A DNA stretch of 6,000 nucleotides, taken from the IMG/VR virus record IMGVR_UViG_2778261058_000017, positions 1 to 6,000 of that record. The stretch is one strand, 5' to 3'. Shown here one piece after another: positions 1-6,000 of this stretch. The notes below the pieces were generated by a model. The model was not told the DNA's origin. It searched no databases and saw nothing but the letters and a program-made list of their open reading frames with translations. Numbering within the stretch: position 1 is the stretch's first letter; every line of letters starts with the position of its first letter. Source of the DNA: a virus (lineage: Duplodnaviria; Heunggongvirae; Uroviricota; Caudoviricetes). Made by a program: the position numbers and the translations under genes.

Positions 1-235
1 AACACCCTCAGACATTATCAATTTTAGATATAGTATGTCCTTGGCGTAGATTTCTCAAGAGTGTAAACAAGGGGGGAGACTTATGCTGGAAACTTGGGAA
101 AAAGCGACTGTTATTTTGTTCAGTAAACACCATGTAAACACACTGCCAACTGGCAACCATTCAATACTCACACCATCGAACGGACTTCAGCTGACCGCGA
201 CCTGTTTCTTCATTCTCGGATAGCGGCATTCATCT

Positions 236-823
236 TTATGCTGGTTTTGCTGGCCAAGTGATGTCAGGTGCTTTCGATGTATCGACCTCCTGAAGTGCTT
301 TAATGTACCAAATCCACGCAATCAGACTCGTCTTATCTTCGTCGCTAATGATTCCCAATTGCAGTTCAGTTGTCCAGAAACTGATCTTTTCCTTAGCTTT
401 TACCAATAGAATAGCTTTTTGCTTATCAGCCACTTCAACATCAGCTGCATACTTAGCATTTGGGTCTGATACCCACTTTTTCCCATCCCATTTCTGGAAC
501 GGATCAGAAGGAGCAATATTGGTATAGCCATTATTAATAGGACCAATATAGTCGATAGTATGAGGCATACCGTCAGTAGTTGAATAAACTGTCTTACCTC
601 GATGGTCTTCTTTCAAGACCCATCCTCCATTTTCGAATACAGCAACCTTTCCTGTTAGTTCATTACCCGGATCAATATCGGTAGAATTACCCGGCATACT
701 GACGCCAATATTAATATATTCGTCTGACCATCCTATATATTCAAAAGTTACTATATCGTAGTAATAGCAGCGGATTTCACCCGGTTCCGTTGCCAGTCCA
801 TTTTCATCAAAAACAGGTTTCAT
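236..823 (-). CDS. Phage tail fibre assembly protein (lambda Tfa family)
   Basis: 195-aa ORF. Translation carries blocks I recall from lambda Tfa: EDHRGKTVY, YQKWNG-type FQKWDGKKWV, and C-terminal VDTSKAPDITWPAKP (lambda: VDTSTAPDIEWP). Start ATG 821-823 overlaps the stop of the upstream tail-fibre ORF (TAATG), the usual tail fibre to tfa coupling. Confidence 0.88.
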   Translation of the reverse strand: MKPVFDENGLATEPGEIRCYYYDIVTFEYIGWSDEYINIGVSMPGNSTDIDPGNELTGKVAVFENGGWVLKEDHRGKTVYSTTDGMPHTIDYIGPINNGYTNIAPSDPFQKWDGKKWVSDPNAKYAADVEVADKQKAILLVKAKEKISFWTTELQLGIISDEDKTSLIAWIWYIKALQEVDTSKAPDITWPAKPA

Positions 824-1635
824 TATTTAGCCCTTACTAAAAAGTTAAATGTGATATTGCGGGGACGTGTTTCGTTGCCTCCAGGATTTTGGAATGCAGG
901 TAAAGCTCCCCCTATCGGCTGACTGATTCCGTTGGTATATAAAGGAGCTGCATTCGATATTGTACCAAACACTACATTGCTACCATTTCCGCTTGTCCCT
1001 AAAAATTTATGCTCATGCATTTTGAAGTCATCTGCTTGTGCAGAAAGTAAGGTTCGCCCTCTATCCACCCCGCGCCCATCATCCCAGATACGAATAAAAT
1101 CACCCCGTGCGTCAGGTAATGCTAGCGCCGGAAACACTTTCGCCAGCACAGGGTAATCAGTGGCAGAGAATTTCGCGCCGTTGAACTTCAAAAACACCAT
1201 ACTGGACCAACTGTCGATTACAGTATTTGGCATTGCGGCGGACGGCCAGAAGAACGGAACACCAATAGCTGGAGCACCTTCTCCCAAACCAAGATTTTCG
1301 AGAGCCGTTTTCACCGTGCCATCCGATTTGATATCACCAAACGGATTCTTGCGGCTTAACAGCAGCGCGCGAAGTGCGGTACCAAAGGCAGCACCTTTTA
1401 GCTCCGCAAGACGTTCTGACCAGTCATGCGCCAGCGCGTTGTCTTCCGCCGTGTAATACGCAGCACATTTGGCGTTATCACCGTCAGTGAACAGATCCAG
1501 AACAAACGGGCCAAACAGGGTGTTAATTCCCCAGAAAATGTTATCCGGCGTGCGCCACTGATCGCCCACTTCCTTCAGTTCATGGGCTGGTTTGTTCCGC
1601 AGTTCGACCAGCGCCTGGCAATATTTATTACTCAT
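823..1635 (-). CDS. Chimeric ORF: N-terminal fragment of phage Dam-like N6-adenine methyltransferase (about aa 1-85) fused in frame to a phage tail-fibre C-terminal domain
   Basis: Likely start is ATG 1633-1635 (MSNKYCQ...), overlapping the stop of the upstream gene as TAATG, with a GGGGG Shine-Dalgarno-like run upstream; the GTG at 1668 in the ORF track is probably an over-extension. N-terminus has the W-x-TP ... NAK ... Y-T-x-ED ... W pattern of phage Dam-family methyltransferases but breaks off at GAAFG, exactly where the catalytic NPPY motif would follow. The remainder ends in [19 protein letters not shown], resembling the conserved C-terminus of P2/Mu/lambdoid tail fibres, and is coupled to the downstream tfa. 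Family assignments are from recalled motifs. Confidence 0.72.
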
Positions 1636-2123
1636 TAAGCCCCCACGTAATTCCCTGACAGATACCACTCATCACCCGGTACAGCGCGCTTGCTGCTTTT
1701 CCGTAAACACCGCTCACGACGCGCAAGAAAATTGTTTCGCTCTGGCTGGGAGTGGCTTTCACGGAATGCCGCCATCCACACCGTTGCAGCACGACGGTAT
1801 AAGCCCCTGGACTCCAGTTCTTCCGCCTGGCGGGTCAGGCACAAAATCACCCGCGGGTCGTTAGTGCCGACATAGAAATTGCGCACAGGTCTGGTTTCAC
1901 GAACTGGTTGTGGTTCCGGCTCCTGCGCTCTCTCAGTCAGGCGCGGGAAATGTCTGCGTGTATCTCCTTCACAACGGTGAGCCACACGCCCACTCTGACG
2001 TAACTTGCTTGCTGACTGCAGAACGCGCTGCCGTGAGTAACCTGCAAAAGCATCCGCAATGTCTCCGGAAGTACAGCCCGGATGGGCTTCAATGAATTTC
2101 TGAACGTCATTCAAAAGACTCAT
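1635..2123 (-). CDS. PerC/ANR-like domain protein (putative transcriptional regulator), prophage-encoded
   Basis: Open frame of 162 aa from ATG 2121-2123 (or 164 aa from the GTG at 2127-2129, which overlaps the O-like stop as GTGA). The C-terminal segment [21 protein letters not shown]...ARRERCL matches the recalled PerC/Pch/ANR signature (E-x-R-G-L-W/Y-R-R-A-A ... R-x-x-C). The N-terminal 60 aa could be a small helical DNA-binding domain. Stop overlaps the next start (TAATG). Confidence 0.65.
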
Positions 2124-2125
2124 GC

Positions 2126-3067
2126 TCACCCCCTGAATCCTGCCGGGATCTGGCTGTAGTCCACGTTGTCGTAACTGGCTTTGAAGTACGGGTCCTCGCG
2201 TTTTTCGGTGTACGTGCTGACGGACGGCGATAAGCGCAGGGAAAGCTCATCCCATTTTTCCCGCAGCTTCGACGGGCTGAGCACGTTACGGCACCAGAAC
2301 GGATCGCGACTGACGCGGCTGTACATCTCGCAGATTTGTTTATGAGTACGACCATCCTGCACACACATCAGGCGAATTTCGTTTGCCCAGGCTGTCCAGT
2401 TCGGTTCTTTGGGACGAACCACCTCGCCGTCACATTCGGCGGCATGCTCGTACAGGGCGATGATTTTTTTCCAGAGCCACTGTGCGCAGGTCAAATCATC
2501 CTGCGTCCCCCACTGGCGCTTTTTAGGGCTGAATACAACCGCATCAGGATGGCGAGTTAAAAAATCCTGTTCAGCCTTCTGCGTGTCCGGTTGCGAAGCG
2601 TCCGGACGAGAAGTTTTTTTATCTGACGGATCATGTTTTGATTTTACTGACGGATCCCCGCCAGATTCTGACGGGTGAAAACCCGCTTTTTTGCCAGATT
2701 TCGACGCATCAAATTTTGACGGGTCAGATTTTGATGCGTCAGATTTTGACGGGTCAGAATCTGACAGTTGAGAAAAAGCCGCAGCCTGAAGCTTCGCAAC
2801 GTTAAGCTGATAAACATTCGACGCATTGCGGTTACCCTGGCGACGCGCCTTACGCGTTAACCAGCCTTCTGCTTCCAGCCGTGCGATAGCCGTTCTGACG
2901 GTACTCATCCCCGCGCCAATCTGGCGGGCAATGGTTTCAATTGATGGCCAGCACACACCTTCGTCATTACTGAAATCAGCCAGGCGTGCCATAATTGCCA
3001 CGCTGGATAATTTCATGCCTGACGCTGCGCAACCATCCCATACATAGCCGGTTAATTTAGTGCTCAT
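2126..3067 (-). CDS. Phage replication initiator (lambda O-like), N-terminal winged-HTH DNA-binding domain, carrying internal iterons
   Basis: 313-aa ORF with ATG at 3065-3067 preceded by GAGG. The N-terminal about 90 aa look like the HTH domain typical of phage/plasmid replication initiators (SSVAIMARLADFSNDEGVCWPSIETIARQIGAGMSTVRTAIARLEAEGWL). The central low-complexity segment SDSDPSKSDASKSDPSKFDASKS is encoded by tandem 15-bp DNA repeats, as in lambda where ori lies inside O. Confidence 0.82.
   Translation of the reverse strand: MSTKLTGYVWDGCAASGMKLSSVAIMARLADFSNDEGVCWPSIETIARQIGAGMSTVRTAIARLEAEGWLTRKARRQGNRNASNVYQLNVAKLQAAAFSQLSDSDPSKSDASKSDPSKFDASKSGKKAGFHPSESGGDPSVKSKHDPSDKKTSRPDASQPDTQKAEQDFLTRHPDAVVFSPKKRQWGTQDDLTCAQWLWKKIIALYEHAAECDGEVVRPKEPNWTAWANEIRLMCVQDGRTHKQICEMYSRVSRDPFWCRNVLSPSKLREKWDELSLRLSPSVSTYTEKREDPYFKASYDNVDYSQIPAGFRG
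2621..2770. repeat. Putative replication origin iterons: about 8 copies of a 15-bp repeat (consensus near AGATTTTGACGGGTC) inside the O-like gene
   Basis: Five contiguous 15-bp units at 2695-2709, 2710-2724, 2725-2739, 2740-2754 and 2755-2769, plus three dispersed copies at 2621-2632, 2641-2656 and 2662-2677, all sharing the core TGACGG (TGATGC/CGACGC variants). DNA-level identity exceeds what the encoded Ser/Asp/Lys linker would need. Confidence 0.6.
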
Positions 3068-3076
3068 GACCGACCT

Positions 3077-3415
3077 CTATTTCCCTGAATTTACGACGAA
3101 ACTGTTCGAGCGGACTGAAGCATTCATGCTCATAGCCTTCGCGGAGGTAGATAACCCGTTGTGTTTCCGGCTCCCAACGAATGACTCTGACGGGTACTCC
3201 GTAGTGATCTTTGAACCAGCGGTTAACTTGTCGCAAAGGACTGTCTCCTTTTGCCGGTTAAAATCACCCACAGCCCACTCTGCAAAGCTGTGGGTTACAA
3301 TTACCCTGCCACCTGGTACATTCACTGCATAGCAATACTCCACCTTCGCTTTTCCACCCGGTACAGGAAGCGCAATCAGTTGCGAGCGACGGTAGTGTGT
3401 TGTTAAACTATTCAT
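3077..3415 (-). CDS. Hypothetical early-region protein, probably disrupted by a frameshift (intact form about 119 aa ending at 3062)
   Basis: 112-aa ORF with ATG 3413-3415 overlapping the upstream stop (ATGA). A second minus-strand frame is open from 3257 to 3062 and encodes a protein-like sequence ([60 protein letters not shown]) whose stop overlaps the O-like start. The two frames can be joined by a 1-nt indel at the T4/A4 homopolymer at 3249-3252. No family recognised. Confidence 0.5.
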
Positions 3416-3963
3416 GCGTTAGTTTCTCCACAGTCACGACACGCCACGGCGCCCGGAGCTGCACACTCGCGGGCGTCATTACTTTCTGAAATGCAAAAAA
3501 TTTTGTAGACCAGTGCTGCATGCTCCTGCAGCTTCGAAATTGAGAGGTACAGCTCGTCGTTAATTGCTGTCTTCTCATGCGGTTCCACTACACCGTCTTC
3601 AATTGCTGAACGAATCTGTTTTGAATAACTGCCGATCTGTTCAATGACCTCCAGCAGGCGTTGGTTGATATCGGCGTTGTCCACATCCTCGACATCAGGA
3701 AGAGACACAAAGACGCCATTTGCAGACTGCGCCACAGCGTCAGCAATGAAGTGAGTTCCACCAGCACGTTGCAAAATCATTGCCCATCCCAGCGGGAAAA
3801 TCTGATCGCCATCGGCACGAAGGCGGTTAAATAATGCGTTCTCTGTTACATCCAGCCAGTCAGCAGCTTCAGCGTACCCCCCCGGCAACGCTGCGATAGT
3901 TTTTCTGACAGCTTTCACGTACCACTCAGGCTGTTTTTCTACTTTCCAGTGATGCTTACCCAC
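3412..3963 (-). CDS. Phage regulatory protein in the CII position (resembles the 186-CII/CP76-type family), putative
   Basis: 183-aa ORF with GTG start at 3961-3963 preceded by AGGAGG at 6-nt spacing; overlaps the Cro-like gene by 8 nt. The N-terminal region has an HTH-like segment ([22 protein letters not shown]). Position immediately downstream of cro and size both fit long CII-type regulators. Family call is from recalled features and is tentative. Confidence 0.6.
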
Positions 3964-4216
3964 GGTTCACCTCCTGTTCCTGTGGTTTAAACCCATTCTG
4001 GTTTTGGCTAGATTGAAAACGTGCCGGATAAAGAATCTGCATTTCGCTGACTTCACCCTTAAAAAAATTGGCTAAACGTTCTGCAAGCTCGATAGATGGA
4101 ATCTGCTCCAGCCTCTCAATACGACTCAACGTCGCTGGATTGACTTGAACACCCGCAGCAACATGCTGCAAAGTGAAACCATGCGCCTTACGCACATTTC
4201 GTAATGGTGATTGCAT
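3956..4216 (-). CDS. Cro-like HTH (XRE-family) transcriptional regulator
   Basis: 86-aa ORF with ATG 4214-4216 preceded by GGAGG (complement of 4222-4226). HTH segment FTLQHVAAGVQVNPATLSRIERLEQIPSIELAERLANFF. Divergent from the CI-like repressor across a 97-bp operator region. Confidence 0.8.
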   Translation of the reverse strand: MQSPLRNVRKAHGFTLQHVAAGVQVNPATLSRIERLEQIPSIELAERLANFFKGEVSEMQILYPARFQSSQNQNGFKPQEQEVNRG

Positions 4217-4313
4217 ATGTCCTCCAAATATTGCGCGTTATGCATGTTATTTCACGCAATTATTTTGCGCAAGTTGATTTGCTTATCACGCAATAAAGAA
4301 ATGTAATAAACGC
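4217..4313. promoter_or_regulatory. Divergent promoter/operator region (OR-like) between the Cro-like and CI-like genes
   Basis: Two similarly built 29-bp sites: TTGCGCG-N15-CACGCAA (4231-4259) and TTGCGCA-N15-CACGCAA (4265-4293), with half-sites 22 bp apart. Candidate leftward promoter: -35 TTGCGC (complement of 4267-4272) and -10 TAACAT (complement of 4244-4249). Candidate promoter for the repressor: -35 TTGCTT 4279-4284 and -10 TGTAAT 4302-4307, ending 6 nt before the ATG, and no Shine-Dalgarno sequence, suggesting a leaderless mRNA as for lambda cI from PRM. Confidence 0.65.
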
Positions 4314-5006
4314 ATGAACATAGGAAACCGAGTCAGACAACTTCGCCAAGCGAAGAACATGAAAATCGCCGATCTCGCTGAAGCAATAGGAGTAGATGCG
4401 GCGAACATCTCGCGCTTAGAAACGGGTAAGCAAAAACAATTTACCGAACAAACACTGAGTAATATTGCCAAGAGCTTAGGTGTTGATATTGCTGATCTCT
4501 TTACCTCTGCCCACAAAAGTAATACTGTATATAAAAACAGTAATAATGAGGATGTTGCGCAGGTGAAGGATGTGTTCCGTATTGAAATGCTGGATATCAG
4601 TGCCAGTGCGGGAAATGGCCTTATCCAGGGCGGTGATGTCATTGATGTGATTCATGCCATCGAATACAGAACTGATAATGCTGTATCAATGTTCGGCGGA
4701 CGACCAGCCAATCACATCAAAGTTATCAACGTTCGTGGGGACAGTATGTGTCCAACCATTGAGCCAGGAGATCTCATCTTCGTTGATGTCAGCATCAATC
4801 AGTTTGATGGTGATGGTATATATGTCTTTGGTTTTGATGACAAAATATACGTTAAAAGACTTCAAATGATTCCTGACAAACTGCTGGTGATTTCTGATAA
4901 CCAGATTTACCGTGAATGGGGAATTACTAGCGAAAACGAACACCGATTCATGGTCTTTGGAAAGGTCTTAATCAGTCAGTCGCAAACCCTTAAGAGACAT
5001 AATTAA
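4314..5006 (+). CDS. CI-like prophage repressor: N-terminal HTH (XRE) plus C-terminal LexA-type S24 peptidase autocleavage domain
   Basis: 230-aa ORF. N-terminal HTH (IADLAEAIGVDAANISRLETG). Putative Ala99-Gly100 cleavage site (SASAGNG). Ser144 in GDSM and Lys181 in YVKRL, with the Ser-Lys spacing of 37 that I recall for LexA. Confidence 0.92.
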   Translation: MNIGNRVRQLRQAKNMKIADLAEAIGVDAANISRLETGKQKQFTEQTLSNIAKSLGVDIADLFTSAHKSNTVYKNSNNEDVAQVKDVFRIEMLDISASAGNGLIQGGDVIDVIHAIEYRTDNAVSMFGGRPANHIKVINVRGDSMCPTIEPGDLIFVDVSINQFDGDGIYVFGFDDKIYVKRLQMIPDKLLVISDNQIYREWGITSENEHRFMVFGKVLISQSQTLKRHN

Positions 5007-5026
5007 CCTCAATATCCCATCCATCG

Positions 5027-5047
5027 GCCACCGAAAGGTGGCTTTTT
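5027..5047 (+). terminator. Rho-independent terminator downstream of the CI-like gene
   Basis: Perfect 6-bp stem GCCACC (5027-5032), loop GAAA, GGTGGC (5037-5042), followed by TTTTT (5043-5047), 20 nt after the repressor stop. Confidence 0.7.
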
Positions 5048-5063
5048 ATTACCTATAAAGTTA

Positions 5064-5097
5064 CATATCTCGCAAATATTACTTGCATATCTCGCAA
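5064..5097. promoter_or_regulatory. Putative secondary (OL-like) operator: direct repeat of CATATCTCGCAA, 22 bp apart
   Basis: Identical 12-mers at 5064-5075 and 5086-5097. The 10-bp core TATCTCGCAA matches the OR half-site TATCACGCAA (4284-4293) at 9 of 10 positions. A possible promoter overlaps (-35 TTGCAT 5083-5088, -10 TATCTT 5106-5111). Confidence 0.4.
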
Positions 5098-5260
5098 TTT
5101 AATTTTATCTTTTGTTCCAGACCAACTACAGGATTACAACAAAATCTGGTTGCAACACGGTGCATGTGTCGTAAGCAGTCAGTAAATGTCAAAAACGAAC
5201 AGGCAGGACGCCCACGAAGTAGCCGCCTGGGGCATATGAAGTCTAGGGTGATTCGTTAGC

Positions 5261-5286
5261 AACAAAAAAGCGCCCTACAGGACGCT
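5261..5286 (-). terminator. Hairpin plus T-run: candidate intrinsic terminator on the minus strand (alternatively a boxB-like hairpin of a plus-strand antitermination site)
   Basis: Stem AGCGCCC (5269-5275), loop TACA, GGACGCT (5280-5286), with one mismatch. On the minus strand it is followed by TTTTTTGTT (complement of 5261-5269). On the plus strand it lies 2 nt upstream of the boxA-like element. Confidence 0.4.
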
Positions 5287-5288
5287 TA

Positions 5289-5301
5289 GCTCTTTAACAA
5301 T
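5289..5301 (+). promoter_or_regulatory. boxA-like element GCTCTTTAACAAT (NusB/NusE-binding type antitermination signal)
   Basis: 13-nt run matching the recalled E. coli rrn leader boxA (TGCTCTTTAACAATTTATCA) and the boxA consensus GCTCTT(T)A. It sits in the plus-strand leader about 45 nt upstream of the small ORF at 5346, i.e. in the position of nutL relative to cI in lambda. Confidence 0.5.
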
Positions 5302-5345
5302 CTGGTCCCCATCAACAAGTAACTGATAACTTGAGGAGGTGTGAA

Positions 5346-5552
5346 ATGCACAAAACAGAACCCAAAATCGTCGCGCCCGGATACACAAATGAGGAAATTT
5401 ACGAGTGGATGGCAAAGAAGCTGGCAGCTATAAACCAGCTTCGTGAAGTGCTGTCTTATCGACAGGAAACAATAGACTCCTTAAAAAAACTGGATCAGGA
5501 AATCACGGTTTTATCACAGGATGTTACTTTAGATATTGTGCAGACAAATTAG
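5346..5552 (+). CDS. Small hypothetical protein (68 aa), predicted helical; first gene downstream of the cI-distal operator/boxA leader
   Basis: ATG at 5346 preceded by a strong GAGGAGG (5333-5339) at 6-nt spacing; the TTG at 5331 in the ORF track is unlikely to be the start. Not Arg-rich, so not an N-like antiterminator. Its 3' end overlaps the convergent minus-strand gene by 29 nt. Confidence 0.55.
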   Translation: MHKTEPKIVAPGYTNEEIYEWMAKKLAAINQLREVLSYRQETIDSLKKLDQEITVLSQDVTLDIVQTN

Positions 5553-6000
5553 GATCCCATTCATTTTCGTCAAAATCATCAAAGTGATGAATTTGTGATC
5601 TCCAGTCTCGATAATCTAAAAATTTCTGGGCGGTTACGCTTATTTTATCAAGTGTGAGTTCATCCTGAATTGAAAGAAGAAGTTCATCAAATTTCATCTC
5701 ATTAATCTGTTTTGGCATCCAGTGATGCTTCATCAGAATAAGGTGAACCAGAGCCTTTTTCCCATTCAACTGATTATAGGGAGTGCCGAATTTCTTCCGG
5801 TGCTCATGTAAGACAAGGTCCAGAAGAGTAAGTAATGTTGCCCTTGATTCCACTTTGCTTATTTCGACTGATGACACTACCCCACTGATTTCAATGCCCC
5901 GATACTTTCCAACATTTTCACAGTGGGATTTGTACAGCGTGTATGTTAGCGCCAGTGATATAAGACGGTAATTCACCATTTGGATTGTCCGCTCCACCCA
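5524..6000 (-). CDS. Hypothetical protein, AT-rich accessory (moron-like) gene; 5' end probably beyond the window
   Basis: Open frame from the window edge to the TAA stop at 5524-5526, at least 158 codons. The GTG at 5997 and the ATG at 5977-5979 are possible but unconvincing starts. Lower GC than the replication genes, by eye. Oriented against the putative early-left transcript. No family recognised. Confidence 0.6.
   Translation of the reverse strand, partial: WVERTIQMVNYRLISLALTYTLYKSHCENVGKYRGIEISGVVSSVEISKVESRATLLTLLDLVLHEHRKKFGTPYNQLNGKKALVHLILMKHHWMPKQINEMKFDELLLSIQDELTLDKISVTAQKFLDYRDWRSQIHHFDDFDENEWDPNLSAQYLK

Follow-up and report, generated by a model that had tools for sequence, protein, structure and literature searches.

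What accounts for an unbroken run of closely overlapping genes that leads, on a single strand, from the early regulators of a phage directly into its tail-fibre genes? The window, by which we mean the whole stretch of 6,000 nucleotides analysed here (positions 1 to 6,000 of IMG/VR record IMGVR_UViG_2778261058_000017), holds such an array on its minus strand between positions 4216 and 236. An earlier note on this DNA had read the array as one long operon crossing a deletion junction, in which derepression of a PR-like promoter would co-express early regulators, the replication initiator, a PerC-like protein and a tail-fibre chimera together with Tfa. Judged by its gene content and homologies, the window is a decayed Escherichia coli prophage in which a deletion placed tightly packed early genes beside the last tail-fibre genes. 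It is best explained as coming from a lambdoid prophage of the e14 / CPS-53 (KpLE1) type whose middle has been lost, and as comprising the immunity and early-right region of that prophage. Fusion of early genes to tail-fibre genes is ordinary, being already known, with evidence of joint transcription, from the E. coli K-12 prophages CPS-53 and e14. The overlaps themselves are not new either, and by our comparisons the sole novelty of the window is an in-frame deletion joint at 1380/1381.

Gene content and packing of the array

The features on which the analysis turns are as follows, with L001 denoting an apparently intact prophage that is closely related to the window.

4314..5006, plus strand: CI-like repressor, 230 aa (Pfam Peptidase_S24 6e-19, HTH_3/HTH_26)
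4217..4313, no strand assigned: divergent promoter/operator region (sequence reading and repeat search)
3956..4216, minus strand: Cro-like HTH_3 protein, 86 aa, first gene of the array (Pfam HTH_3 5e-10; same position in L001)
3412..3963, minus strand: YmfL / CII(CP76)-like regulator, 183 aa (NCBIfam phage_reg_YmfL 9e-50; Pfam Phage_CP76; phrog_101)
3077..3415, minus strand: ymfM-like ORF, 112 codons (phrog_1170, 112/112; phrog_20047, first 63 aa only)
3057..3236, minus strand: DUF4222 gene, 59 aa (PGAP calls in L001, L007 and L008; phrog_1343, more distantly phrog_285 and phrog_1153)
2126..3067, minus strand: O-like replication initiator (rep), 313 aa (phrog_391 3e-135, full length; Pfam HTH_36)
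2694..2764, no strand assigned: five iterons spaced by 15 bp inside rep, presumed origin (pattern search and repeat families)
1635..2129, minus strand: PerC-family protein (YfdN homologue), 164 aa from GTG 2129 or 162 aa from ATG 2123 (Pfam PerC 1e-9; phrog_1324)
823..1635, minus strand: in-frame Dam::tail-fibre chimera, 270 aa (Pfam Dam, residues 29-86; Collar, residues 158-192)
1380..1381, no strand assigned: deletion joint with shared TA (BLAST coordinates and four-way alignment)
236..823, minus strand: Tfa tail-fibre assembly chaperone, 195 aa (Pfam Caudo_TAP 3.5e-28; phrog_105)
1..235, minus strand: spacer that separates tfa from the following same-strand gene (NeuD/PglD-type acetyltransferase, starting just outside the window past position 1)

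Profile matches from Pfam, phrog and NCBIfam agree with the gene identities that the earlier note had proposed, namely a cro-like HTH gene, CII/YmfL, the initiator, PerC/YfdN (annotated as yfdN in relatives), the Dam::tail-fibre chimera and Tfa. The eight ORFs of the array are all intact, as are the motifs of the repressor. The immunity module is of lambdoid form: repeated operator motifs separate the divergent genes of an S24 CI-type repressor and a small Cro-type HTH protein. The initiator combines an N-terminal winged helix with a C-terminal domain, and its gene matches phrog_391 over the full length and contains the iterons. The Q-type antiterminator that ends a lambdoid module is missing from the window, and the module is thus truncated. 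Q, the lysis genes and the morphogenesis genes are absent from both the window and its source contig; in L001 they are present.

Read directly from the sequence, the six start/stop junctions lie where the earlier note had placed them. The cro-like gene and ymfL overlap by 8 nt at 3956-3963, the GTG start of ymfL at 3963 being preceded by AGGAGG with a 6-nt spacer. The ATGA overlap of ymfL and the ymfM-like ORF at 3412-3415 is conserved in a 73%-identical relative (L007). The ymfM-like ORF ends with its stop codon at 3077-3079 and rep begins with the ATG at 3065-3067; the gap that had been claimed here is present, though it measures 9 nt and not 10. Between rep and the PerC gene there is a GTGA overlap if the latter starts at GTG 2129, or a 2-nt gap if it starts at ATG 2123, which has the better Shine-Dalgarno spacing. 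TAATG joins the PerC gene to the chimera at 1633-1637, where the chimera starts at ATG 1635 and not at the longer GTG 1668 of the automated ORF list, and joins the chimera to tfa at 821-825. A GGAG/GAGG/GGGG-type motif precedes each downstream start by 4-10 nt and falls within the preceding gene.

We rejected ymfM as the only gene between ymfL and rep, because the substitution pattern favours the DUF4222 gene where the two overlap. This gene, whose TTG start follows AAGGAG at a 7-nt spacing, occupies a different frame within the 3' portion of the ymfM-like ORF, leaving only the first ~60 codons of that ORF outside the overlap, and itself overlaps the start of rep by 11 nt. Substitutions relative to L007 fall at DUF4222 codon positions 1/2/3 in the ratio 10/7/28, and amino-acid identity is 44/55 in the DUF4222 frame versus 23/52 in the ymfM frame, a pattern that favours DUF4222 as the frame under selection in the overlap. 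Translation of ymfM across 3236-3077 appears doubtful, and ribosome coverage of 3412-3237 would therefore depend on a real short N-terminal part. The region of this ORF (3040-3430) is 97.7% identical at the nucleotide level to e14 ymfM.

The packing has a simple source. Positions 1380-5940 of the window are 99% identical to L001, which continues from dam to Q, holin and lysozyme, and whose operon from PR comprises cro, ymfL, ymfM/DUF4222, rep, perC, dam, a LexA-like gene, rusA, kilA-N, DUF968 and Q. Its annotated junction spacings are -8, -11, -4, -1, -4, -4, +19, +7 and +14 nt, besides an annotated gap of +175 nt between ymfL and DUF4222, where PGAP leaves the ymfM ORF uncalled. Five of the junction geometries of the window are annotated identically in L001, and the 1-nt stf/tfa overlap is likewise annotated in E. 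coli D9. From these correspondences we read five of the overlaps as inherited unchanged from the early-right operon of the intact relative, in which translationally coupled junctions are the normal state by its annotated coordinates, and the sixth as inherited from the late operon of a tail-gene cluster. Such tight packing is normal for phage operons and no oddity of the window.

The deletion joint and the chimera

That a deletion junction lies within the array, as the earlier note had supposed, is borne out by a switch of homology at 1380/1381, confirmed in a four-way alignment (TTTGGTA/CCGCAC on the gene strand). L001 matches the dam side at 99% identity and E. coli D9 the stf side at 100%; in D9 the match takes in positions 1-1381 as a whole, tfa included, and corresponds to where stf and tfa close a baseplate/tail cluster, again at 100%. 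The chimera consists of Dam methylase residues 1-85 (1635-1381) followed by the last 185 residues (1380-823) of a tail fibre that is 252 aa long. Its residues 1-84 match phrog_111, its residues 96-270 match the tail-fibre families phrog_3100 and phrog_523, and the catalytic NPPY motif of Dam is lost.

At first we assumed this joint to be the yfdM/yfdL joint of K-12 CPS-53, but alignment ruled this out. The K-12 joint retains 12 more nt of dam (through NPPY) and 135 more nt of stf, which makes 146 extra nt if the shared TA is counted only once. It also breaks the frame: its dam frame stops 6 codons past the joint, whereas that of the window continues in frame. Among complete genomes the K-12 joint occurs in 360 and the window joint in none. 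The exact chimera is found in only 3 contigs and in 0/5426 complete E. coli genomes, and the 29-nt joint sequence has no exact match among GTDB representative genomes. By exact protein match the source is contig NLNZ01000027.1 of assembly GCA_002229985.1, and Logan run SRR3989737.

The earlier note had spoken of a rewiring of late structural genes into the early operon. Tail-fibre genes are indeed joined to the early array, but the wording claims too much: the late genes left are a tail-fibre tip without its N-terminal 67 residues and its chaperone, and the locus holds no Q, lysis, head or tail genes. Most likely, the chimera and Tfa arose through decay and do not represent a designed rewiring. 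Past the downstream end of tfa, the source contig continues with the acetyltransferase gene, a MaoC gene, hypothetical genes, a LysR fragment and paoD, which is the flank of a thrW-linked remnant in E. coli D9; the other prophage end lies off the contig.

Transcription of the array

The absence of a terminator between 4216 and 236 held up under two kinds of scan. On the minus strand of the array, a consensus scan returned a single match, a weak hairpin of 3 G-C pairs at 4196-4180 inside cro, and an RNAfold-based scan returned only weak intra-ORF hairpins, none followed by a proper U-tract. An attenuator role for the cro hairpin was considered and rejected: in the apparently intact relative the early operon opens with this very sequence, and transcription has to pass it to get to rep and Q. 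The window does have two canonical terminators, neither of them within the array: one follows the repressor gene at 5026-5043 (plus strand), and the other is at 5287-5268 (minus strand). No terminator-like site was found on the minus strand of the 1..235 spacer, which contains two promoter-like sites (58-30 and 41-14); the end of tfa is AT-rich (41% G+C) and may be open to silencing by H-NS, and Rho-dependent termination and RNA processing may likewise affect the transcript.

Upstream of cro, the candidate PR has a -35 element TTGCGC (4272-4267), a 17-nt spacer and a -10 element TAACAT (4249-4244), with a predicted start near 4237. With 8/12 matches it fell below the 9/12 threshold of the consensus promoter scanner, which missed it, and its assignment comes from reading the sequence. 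Repeated CGCAAT / TTGCGC(A/G) motifs at 4228-4236, 4252-4260, 4262-4270 and 4286-4294 may serve as operators. The S24 domain of the divergent repressor comes with the cleavage site Ala99-Gly100, the catalytic Ser144 (GDSM) and Lys181 (KR), so SOS-type derepression is plausible.

A further promoter probably lies inside rep. The iterons at 2694-2764 are exact or near-exact copies of four K-12 boxes for SrsR (YgfI), TCAGATTTTGC, and binding of SrsR to them is predicted; a search with the box pattern gave 11 matches versus 2.8 expected. (An Rfam 'mir-5880' match at 2692-2766 scored 30.7 bits against a gathering score of 97, and we read it as an artefact of the iteron repeats.) In K-12 the boxes TCAGATTTTGC were footprinted upstream of yfdO and activate yfdONMLK (PMC9181523, Table 1). 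This set of genes (yfdO-yfdN-yfdM'-'yfdL-yfdK) has been treated as one operon crossing the dam'/'stf joint, on the evidence of a Northern band of <2.9 kb seen with a yfdK probe and of RT-qPCR in which yfdO and yfdK respond together to SrsR (PMC9181523). The K-12 evidence concerns the internal-promoter transcript, as CPS-53 lacks PR, cro, ymfL and ymfM. Since the boxes are present unchanged inside rep, an independent, SrsR-activated minus-strand promoter just downstream of the iterons is likely here too. With such a promoter, the single-operon reading from PR, though plausible and not new, is probably incomplete.

The explanation that we favour overall, and hold to be fairly probable, is a deleted lambdoid prophage in which read-through of the array from PR is combined with the internal promoter. 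In the apparently intact relative the tail fibre and tfa stand at the far end of the Q-dependent late operon. An illegitimate deletion using 2 nt of shared sequence removed everything from dam codon 86 to codon 68 of the tail-fibre gene, leaving a joint that is in frame by chance and, being so, can let ribosomes run gapless from cro to the stop of tfa. Upon SOS induction, RecA-stimulated self-cleavage would inactivate the S24-type repressor, and RNA polymerase starting near 4237 would read through the whole array; read-through is favoured because there is no intrinsic terminator and continuous translation would leave almost no naked RNA for Rho. The second promoter, by the iterons, would probably drive the C-terminal region of rep, perC, the chimera and tfa, as in yfdONMLK. 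What the sequence shows directly is the anatomy, the homologies and the lack of terminators; transcript structure, SOS control and internal-promoter activity in the source strain we infer.

The strongest competitor, to which we give perhaps a minor share of the probability, posits at least two transcription units: the PR transcript fades or stops early through Rho, RNase processing or silencing, and perC, the chimera and tfa are expressed outside SOS control, essentially from an internal, SrsR-dependent stationary-phase promoter next to the iterons, as in K-12. The SrsR boxes match the footprinted K-12 ones in both sequence and spacing, K-12 expresses yfdONMLK without any PR, and the earlier note itself had named independent promoters as the outcome that would count against a single operon. 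Yet no terminator separates PR from the iterons, an intact phage must reach rep, Q and the genes between them from PR through the same sequence, and the distal remnants of e14 are co-induced with its proximal genes. We consider it unlikely that the array is a silent fossil, its repressor stable or non-inducible or the region silenced by H-NS, with the overlaps merely reflecting a recent deletion. The rarity of the joint is compatible with this, as are flanks 99-100% identical to intact or other copies, which leave little time for decay; however, the intactness of all eight ORFs and of the repressor motifs speaks against it, as does the expression of the homologous K-12 remnants.

More doubtful still is a different history for the joint, in which a secondary deletion of 146 nt from an out-of-frame joint of the K-12 type was kept for its restored frame, the tail-fibre tip and Tfa forming a domesticated module of benefit to the host. 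Were this true, the secondary deletion would have re-established coupled translation into tfa and shielding of the RNA from Rho, and the module would be under SOS and SrsR control, likened to yfdK, which reportedly has a role in peroxide survival. The least probable reading treats the overlap chain as an artefact of ORF calling: the ymfM/DUF4222 region does hold two overlapping ORFs on which annotation pipelines differ, but every other gene strongly matches a family, and the independent annotation of relatives gives identical coordinates.

Comparison with lambda, e14 and CPS-53

Like the canonical PR operon of lambda (cro-cII-O-P-...-Q), the window pairs a divergent S24 repressor with Cro around repeated operators, places a CII-like regulator behind cro and has its origin iterons inside the initiator gene; in the intact relative, Q also ends the operon. 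Unlike in lambda, cro and ymfL overlap by 8 nt and there is therefore no intergenic space for a nutR/tR1-type element; furthermore, no N-like gene was recognised in the window, and Q and the late promoter are deleted.

The e14 prophage (cohE-croE-ymfL-ymfM-oweE...stfP-tfaP), which integrates in icd, shares the ymfL-ymfM/DUF4222-rep N-terminal segment with 95.3% identity over window positions 2834-3991, and it too has early/late fusions made by deletion on one strand: rep'::terL', portal'::baseplate J', then ymfQ, stf and tfa. Its repressor and cro alleles differ (croE is of the YdaS type, and there is no nucleotide match beyond 3991), its deletion joints, such as rep'::terminase' (oweE), do not occur in the window, whose rep is intact, and it has kept more of the tail genes, along with pinE and an invertible tail-fibre segment. 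Breakpoints of the e14 type within rep are found in 283 genomes versus 361 for those of the CPS-53 type. For the e14 genes ymfL, ymfM, ymfR, ymfQ and tfaP, early genes and tail remnants alike, log2 changes of 4.0-4.8 are reported in step with SOS genes (PMC10012262), and ymfM has been described as a late SOS-induced gene under a CI-like repressor (PMC11002266); excision or replication may, through copy number, contribute to the co-induction.

The closest counterpart is CPS-53, whose yfdONMLK has the same one-strand order of the C-terminal part of rep, PerC, a Dam N-fragment/tail-fibre C-fragment and Tfa, with 97.7% nucleotide identity over window positions 1380-2834 and the same iterons/SrsR boxes. 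Judging from this alignment, the arrangement in the window is a variant of yfdM'/'yfdL and not new. The distal stf tip and tfa belong to a different cassette (window Tfa and YfdK are 29% identical over 108 aa), and the chromosomal flank differs: that of the window is the pao/thrW side and that of CPS-53 argW-dsdC, the tfa-side flank of the source contig showing no argW integration with intS, yfdGHI and torI. A second deletion in CPS-53 removed the repressor, cro, ymfL, ymfM and the N-terminus of rep, all of which the window keeps. On its own the window is of little importance. It illustrates how internal deletions in decaying cryptic prophages place leftover late genes under early, repressor-controlled promoters, and it indicates that the K-12 SrsR boxes, there in a so-called intergenic region, are origin iterons inside a replication gene. 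As a less-decayed sister of CPS-53, with repressor, cro, ymfL and ymfM still present and rep complete, it is useful as a reference for reconstructing the erosion of both CPS-53 and e14.

Gene content and junctions of the array

Gene identities were assigned from the ORF list in conjunction with Pfam, PHROGs and NCBIfam, yielding the following features:

3956-4216, minus strand: Cro-like HTH gene, first in minus-strand order
3412-3963, minus strand: YmfL/CII(CP76)-like regulator
3077-3415, minus strand: ymfM-like ORF, 112 codons
3057-3236, minus strand: DUF4222 gene, out of frame inside the ymfM-like ORF
2126-3067, minus strand: O-like replication initiator (rep)
1635-2129, minus strand: PerC/YfdN-family gene
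823-1635, minus strand: Dam::tail-fibre chimera, 270 codons
236-823, minus strand: tail-fibre assembly gene (tfa)
4314-5006, divergent from the array: CI-like repressor with an S24 peptidase domain
5331-5552, plus strand: 73-codon ORF, phrog_1744
5524-5997, minus strand: ECs1072-family gene with its own canonical terminator (5287-5268)

The ECs1072-family gene and its terminator form an opposite-strand insert within the early-left region (5268-5997), with the gene overlapping the 3' end of the phrog_1744 ORF by 29 nt.

Every junction of the array was read on the gene strand. The cro-like gene and ymfL overlap by 8 nt (3956-3963), ymfL and ymfM share ATGA (3412-3415), and the rep ATG lies 9 nt past the end of the ymfM frame (the earlier note had a gap of 10 nt), with its start overlapped by the DUF4222 frame by 11 nt. 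The rep and perC genes share GTGA, or are separated by 2 nt with ATG 2123 as the perC start; of the two candidate starts, ATG 2123 has the better-spaced Shine-Dalgarno motif. TAATG is common to perC and the chimera (1633-1637) and again to the chimera and tfa (821-825); a small correction is that the chimera starts at ATG 1635. For every start, a purine-rich Shine-Dalgarno motif lies inside the upstream gene. A consensus scan of 236-4216 returned one minus-strand terminator-like match, a weak hairpin of three G-C pairs inside cro, and in a separate scan based on folding, no stable hairpin of the array was followed by a real U-tract; the window's two canonical terminators lie outside it, after the repressor and ECs1072-family genes. 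Accordingly, the earlier observation of an overlapping start/stop chain from the cro-like gene to tfa with no visible terminator is correct.

PGAP calls DUF4222 rather than ymfM, and the source-contig gene calls give a 112-aa product at the same place. When the window is compared with one relative of 73% identity, the overlap shows 10, 7 and 28 substitutions at DUF4222 codon positions 1, 2 and 3, and the DUF4222 frame keeps 44/55 amino acids identical versus 23/52 for the ymfM frame. Hence DUF4222 is the frame under selection, and the only one with a signature of purifying selection there. Neither sequence has a stop codon interrupting the ymfM frame, and both keep the ATGA that it shares with ymfL; if the first 60 or so ymfM codons are translated, the array has no long untranslated stretch. 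The published ORF of the e14 division inhibitor ymfM (SfiC) holds nearly the entire DUF4222 ORF in another frame (window 3057-3415), and the pBAD-ymfM clone with which filamentation was shown would therefore also contain 53 of the 59 DUF4222 codons, including the start. It may deserve checking whether ymfM or DUF4222 is responsible for this phenotype.

Origin of the array and its deletion joint

The region 1380-5940 is ~99% identical to prophages of many E. coli genomes, in which the operon runs through full-length dam to a LexA-like gene, rusA, kilA-N and DUF968, then antiterminator Q, holin and lysozyme, and in which annotation gives the same geometry for each of the five proximal junctions. 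Over 1-1381 there is 100% identity to the end of an E. coli D9 cluster of tape-measure, baseplate and tail-fibre genes adjoining thrW; this cluster has the same 1-nt stf/tfa overlap, and its downstream flank, from the acetyltransferase to paoD, is that of the window's source contig. The array thus consists of two stretches of ordinary, densely packed phage operon united by one deletion. The sole new junction is the deletion joint itself.

Homology changes over at 1380/1381, with TA shared between both sides, and the resulting fusion is in frame. Of Dam it retains residues 1-85, with the NPPY catalytic motif gone, and of the 252-residue tail fibre the C-terminal 185 residues. The chimera cannot be a working methylase; nor can it be an attached tail fibre, because the fibre's N-terminal 67 residues are missing and no other tail genes are present at the locus. 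The joint also generates a GGTACC (KpnI) site. None of 5426 complete E. coli genomes has this joint, and a large assembly index yields just three contigs with it.

At the same chromosomal flank, the thrW region of D9 shows the complementary form of decay, having no early region: its tape-measure, baseplate (one gene with an IS66 insertion), stf and tfa genes come after an integrase fragment and an IS3 element.

Probable transcription across the array

A candidate PR (TTGCGC, 17 nt, TAACAT; 4272-4244) is set among four repeated CGCAAT-type motifs. The CI-like repressor has the Ala-Gly site, GDSM serine and KR lysine, and by analogy with its family would be SOS-inducible.

Published work on K-12 (Int J Mol Sci 2022;23:6055, PMC9181523) handles yfdONMLK as one operon, with a yfdK probe detecting a Northern band shorter than 23S rRNA; yfdO and yfdK RNA respond jointly to SrsR, a regulator with four TCAGATTTTGC binding boxes. 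The roughly 2.5 kb from the end of yfdO to the end of yfdK in K-12 is consistent with that band. These boxes are unchanged in the window (2694-2764), where they are plainly 15-bp-spaced origin iterons inside an intact rep. In K-12 the SrsR (YgfI) boxes were assigned to the intergenic stretch between yfdO and yfdP; here they are inside an intact phage replication gene and encode a repetitive SDPSKSDASKSDPSKFDASKS linker.

The promoter that the boxes serve in K-12 must sit in sequence common to the window, so the distal genes are likely to have an internal start that is independent of SOS. Such a start is one of the outcomes named in the earlier note as telling against a single operon, and that model is probably incomplete. 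Read-through from PR to tfa is likely, with the internal promoter acting in addition. Read-through may possibly extend into moron-like genes beyond the array.

The window lacks a terminator after tfa (1-235), and the next same-strand genes encode a NeuD/PglD-type sugar acetyltransferase and a MaoC dehydratase (L004, a contig with the downstream genes, 5768-7100); promoter-like sites precede the acetyltransferase gene at window 58-30 and 41-14.

Relationship to CPS-53 and e14

In e14, the log2 changes of ymfL, ymfM, ymfR, ymfQ and tfaP range from 4.0 to 4.8, alongside SOS genes (PMC10012262), and ymfM follows the pattern of a late SOS gene controlled by the CI-like repressor (PMC11002266). With these and the yfdONMLK findings, the idea that leftover late genes come under early control after deletion is already on record. 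The interpretation in the earlier note is reasonable, yet neither novel nor complete.

The two K-12 remnants carry the two halves of rep, with the same breakpoint within 2 nt (window 2833-2835; about 3295 in the e14 region, L008; about 7705 in the CPS-53 region, L003), about 70 nt upstream of the origin iterons. The e14 side matches 2834-3991 and has the N-terminal 78 codons followed by a terminase fragment (oweE); the CPS-53 side matches 1380-2834, with the joint of the C-terminal part (yfdO) lying 18 nt before the yfdP ATG. The e14 and CPS-53 joints occur in 283 and 361 complete genomes, respectively. The shared break could reflect a hotspot or a single ancestral event.

Like the window, e14 (95.3% identity across 2834-3991) has early genes fused through deletions to late remnants on one strand. 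CPS-53/KpLE1 shares 97.7% identity across 1380-2834 and the order yfdO (rep C-terminal part), yfdN, yfdM (dam'), yfdL ('stf) and yfdK (tfa). However, its dam'/'stf joint, found in 360 of 5426 complete E. coli genomes, is out of frame, unlike that of the window, and retains an extra 12 nt of dam and an extra 135 nt of the fibre gene. The two joints (window 1380-1381; L003 6104-6251) are near each other, yet the chromosomal flanks of the remnants differ. The window joint may have arisen independently, or a joint of the K-12 type may have lost a further 146 nt in a secondary deletion. As a whole, the array is an ordinary result of the decay of a prophage and represents a new allele of an arrangement known from K-12.
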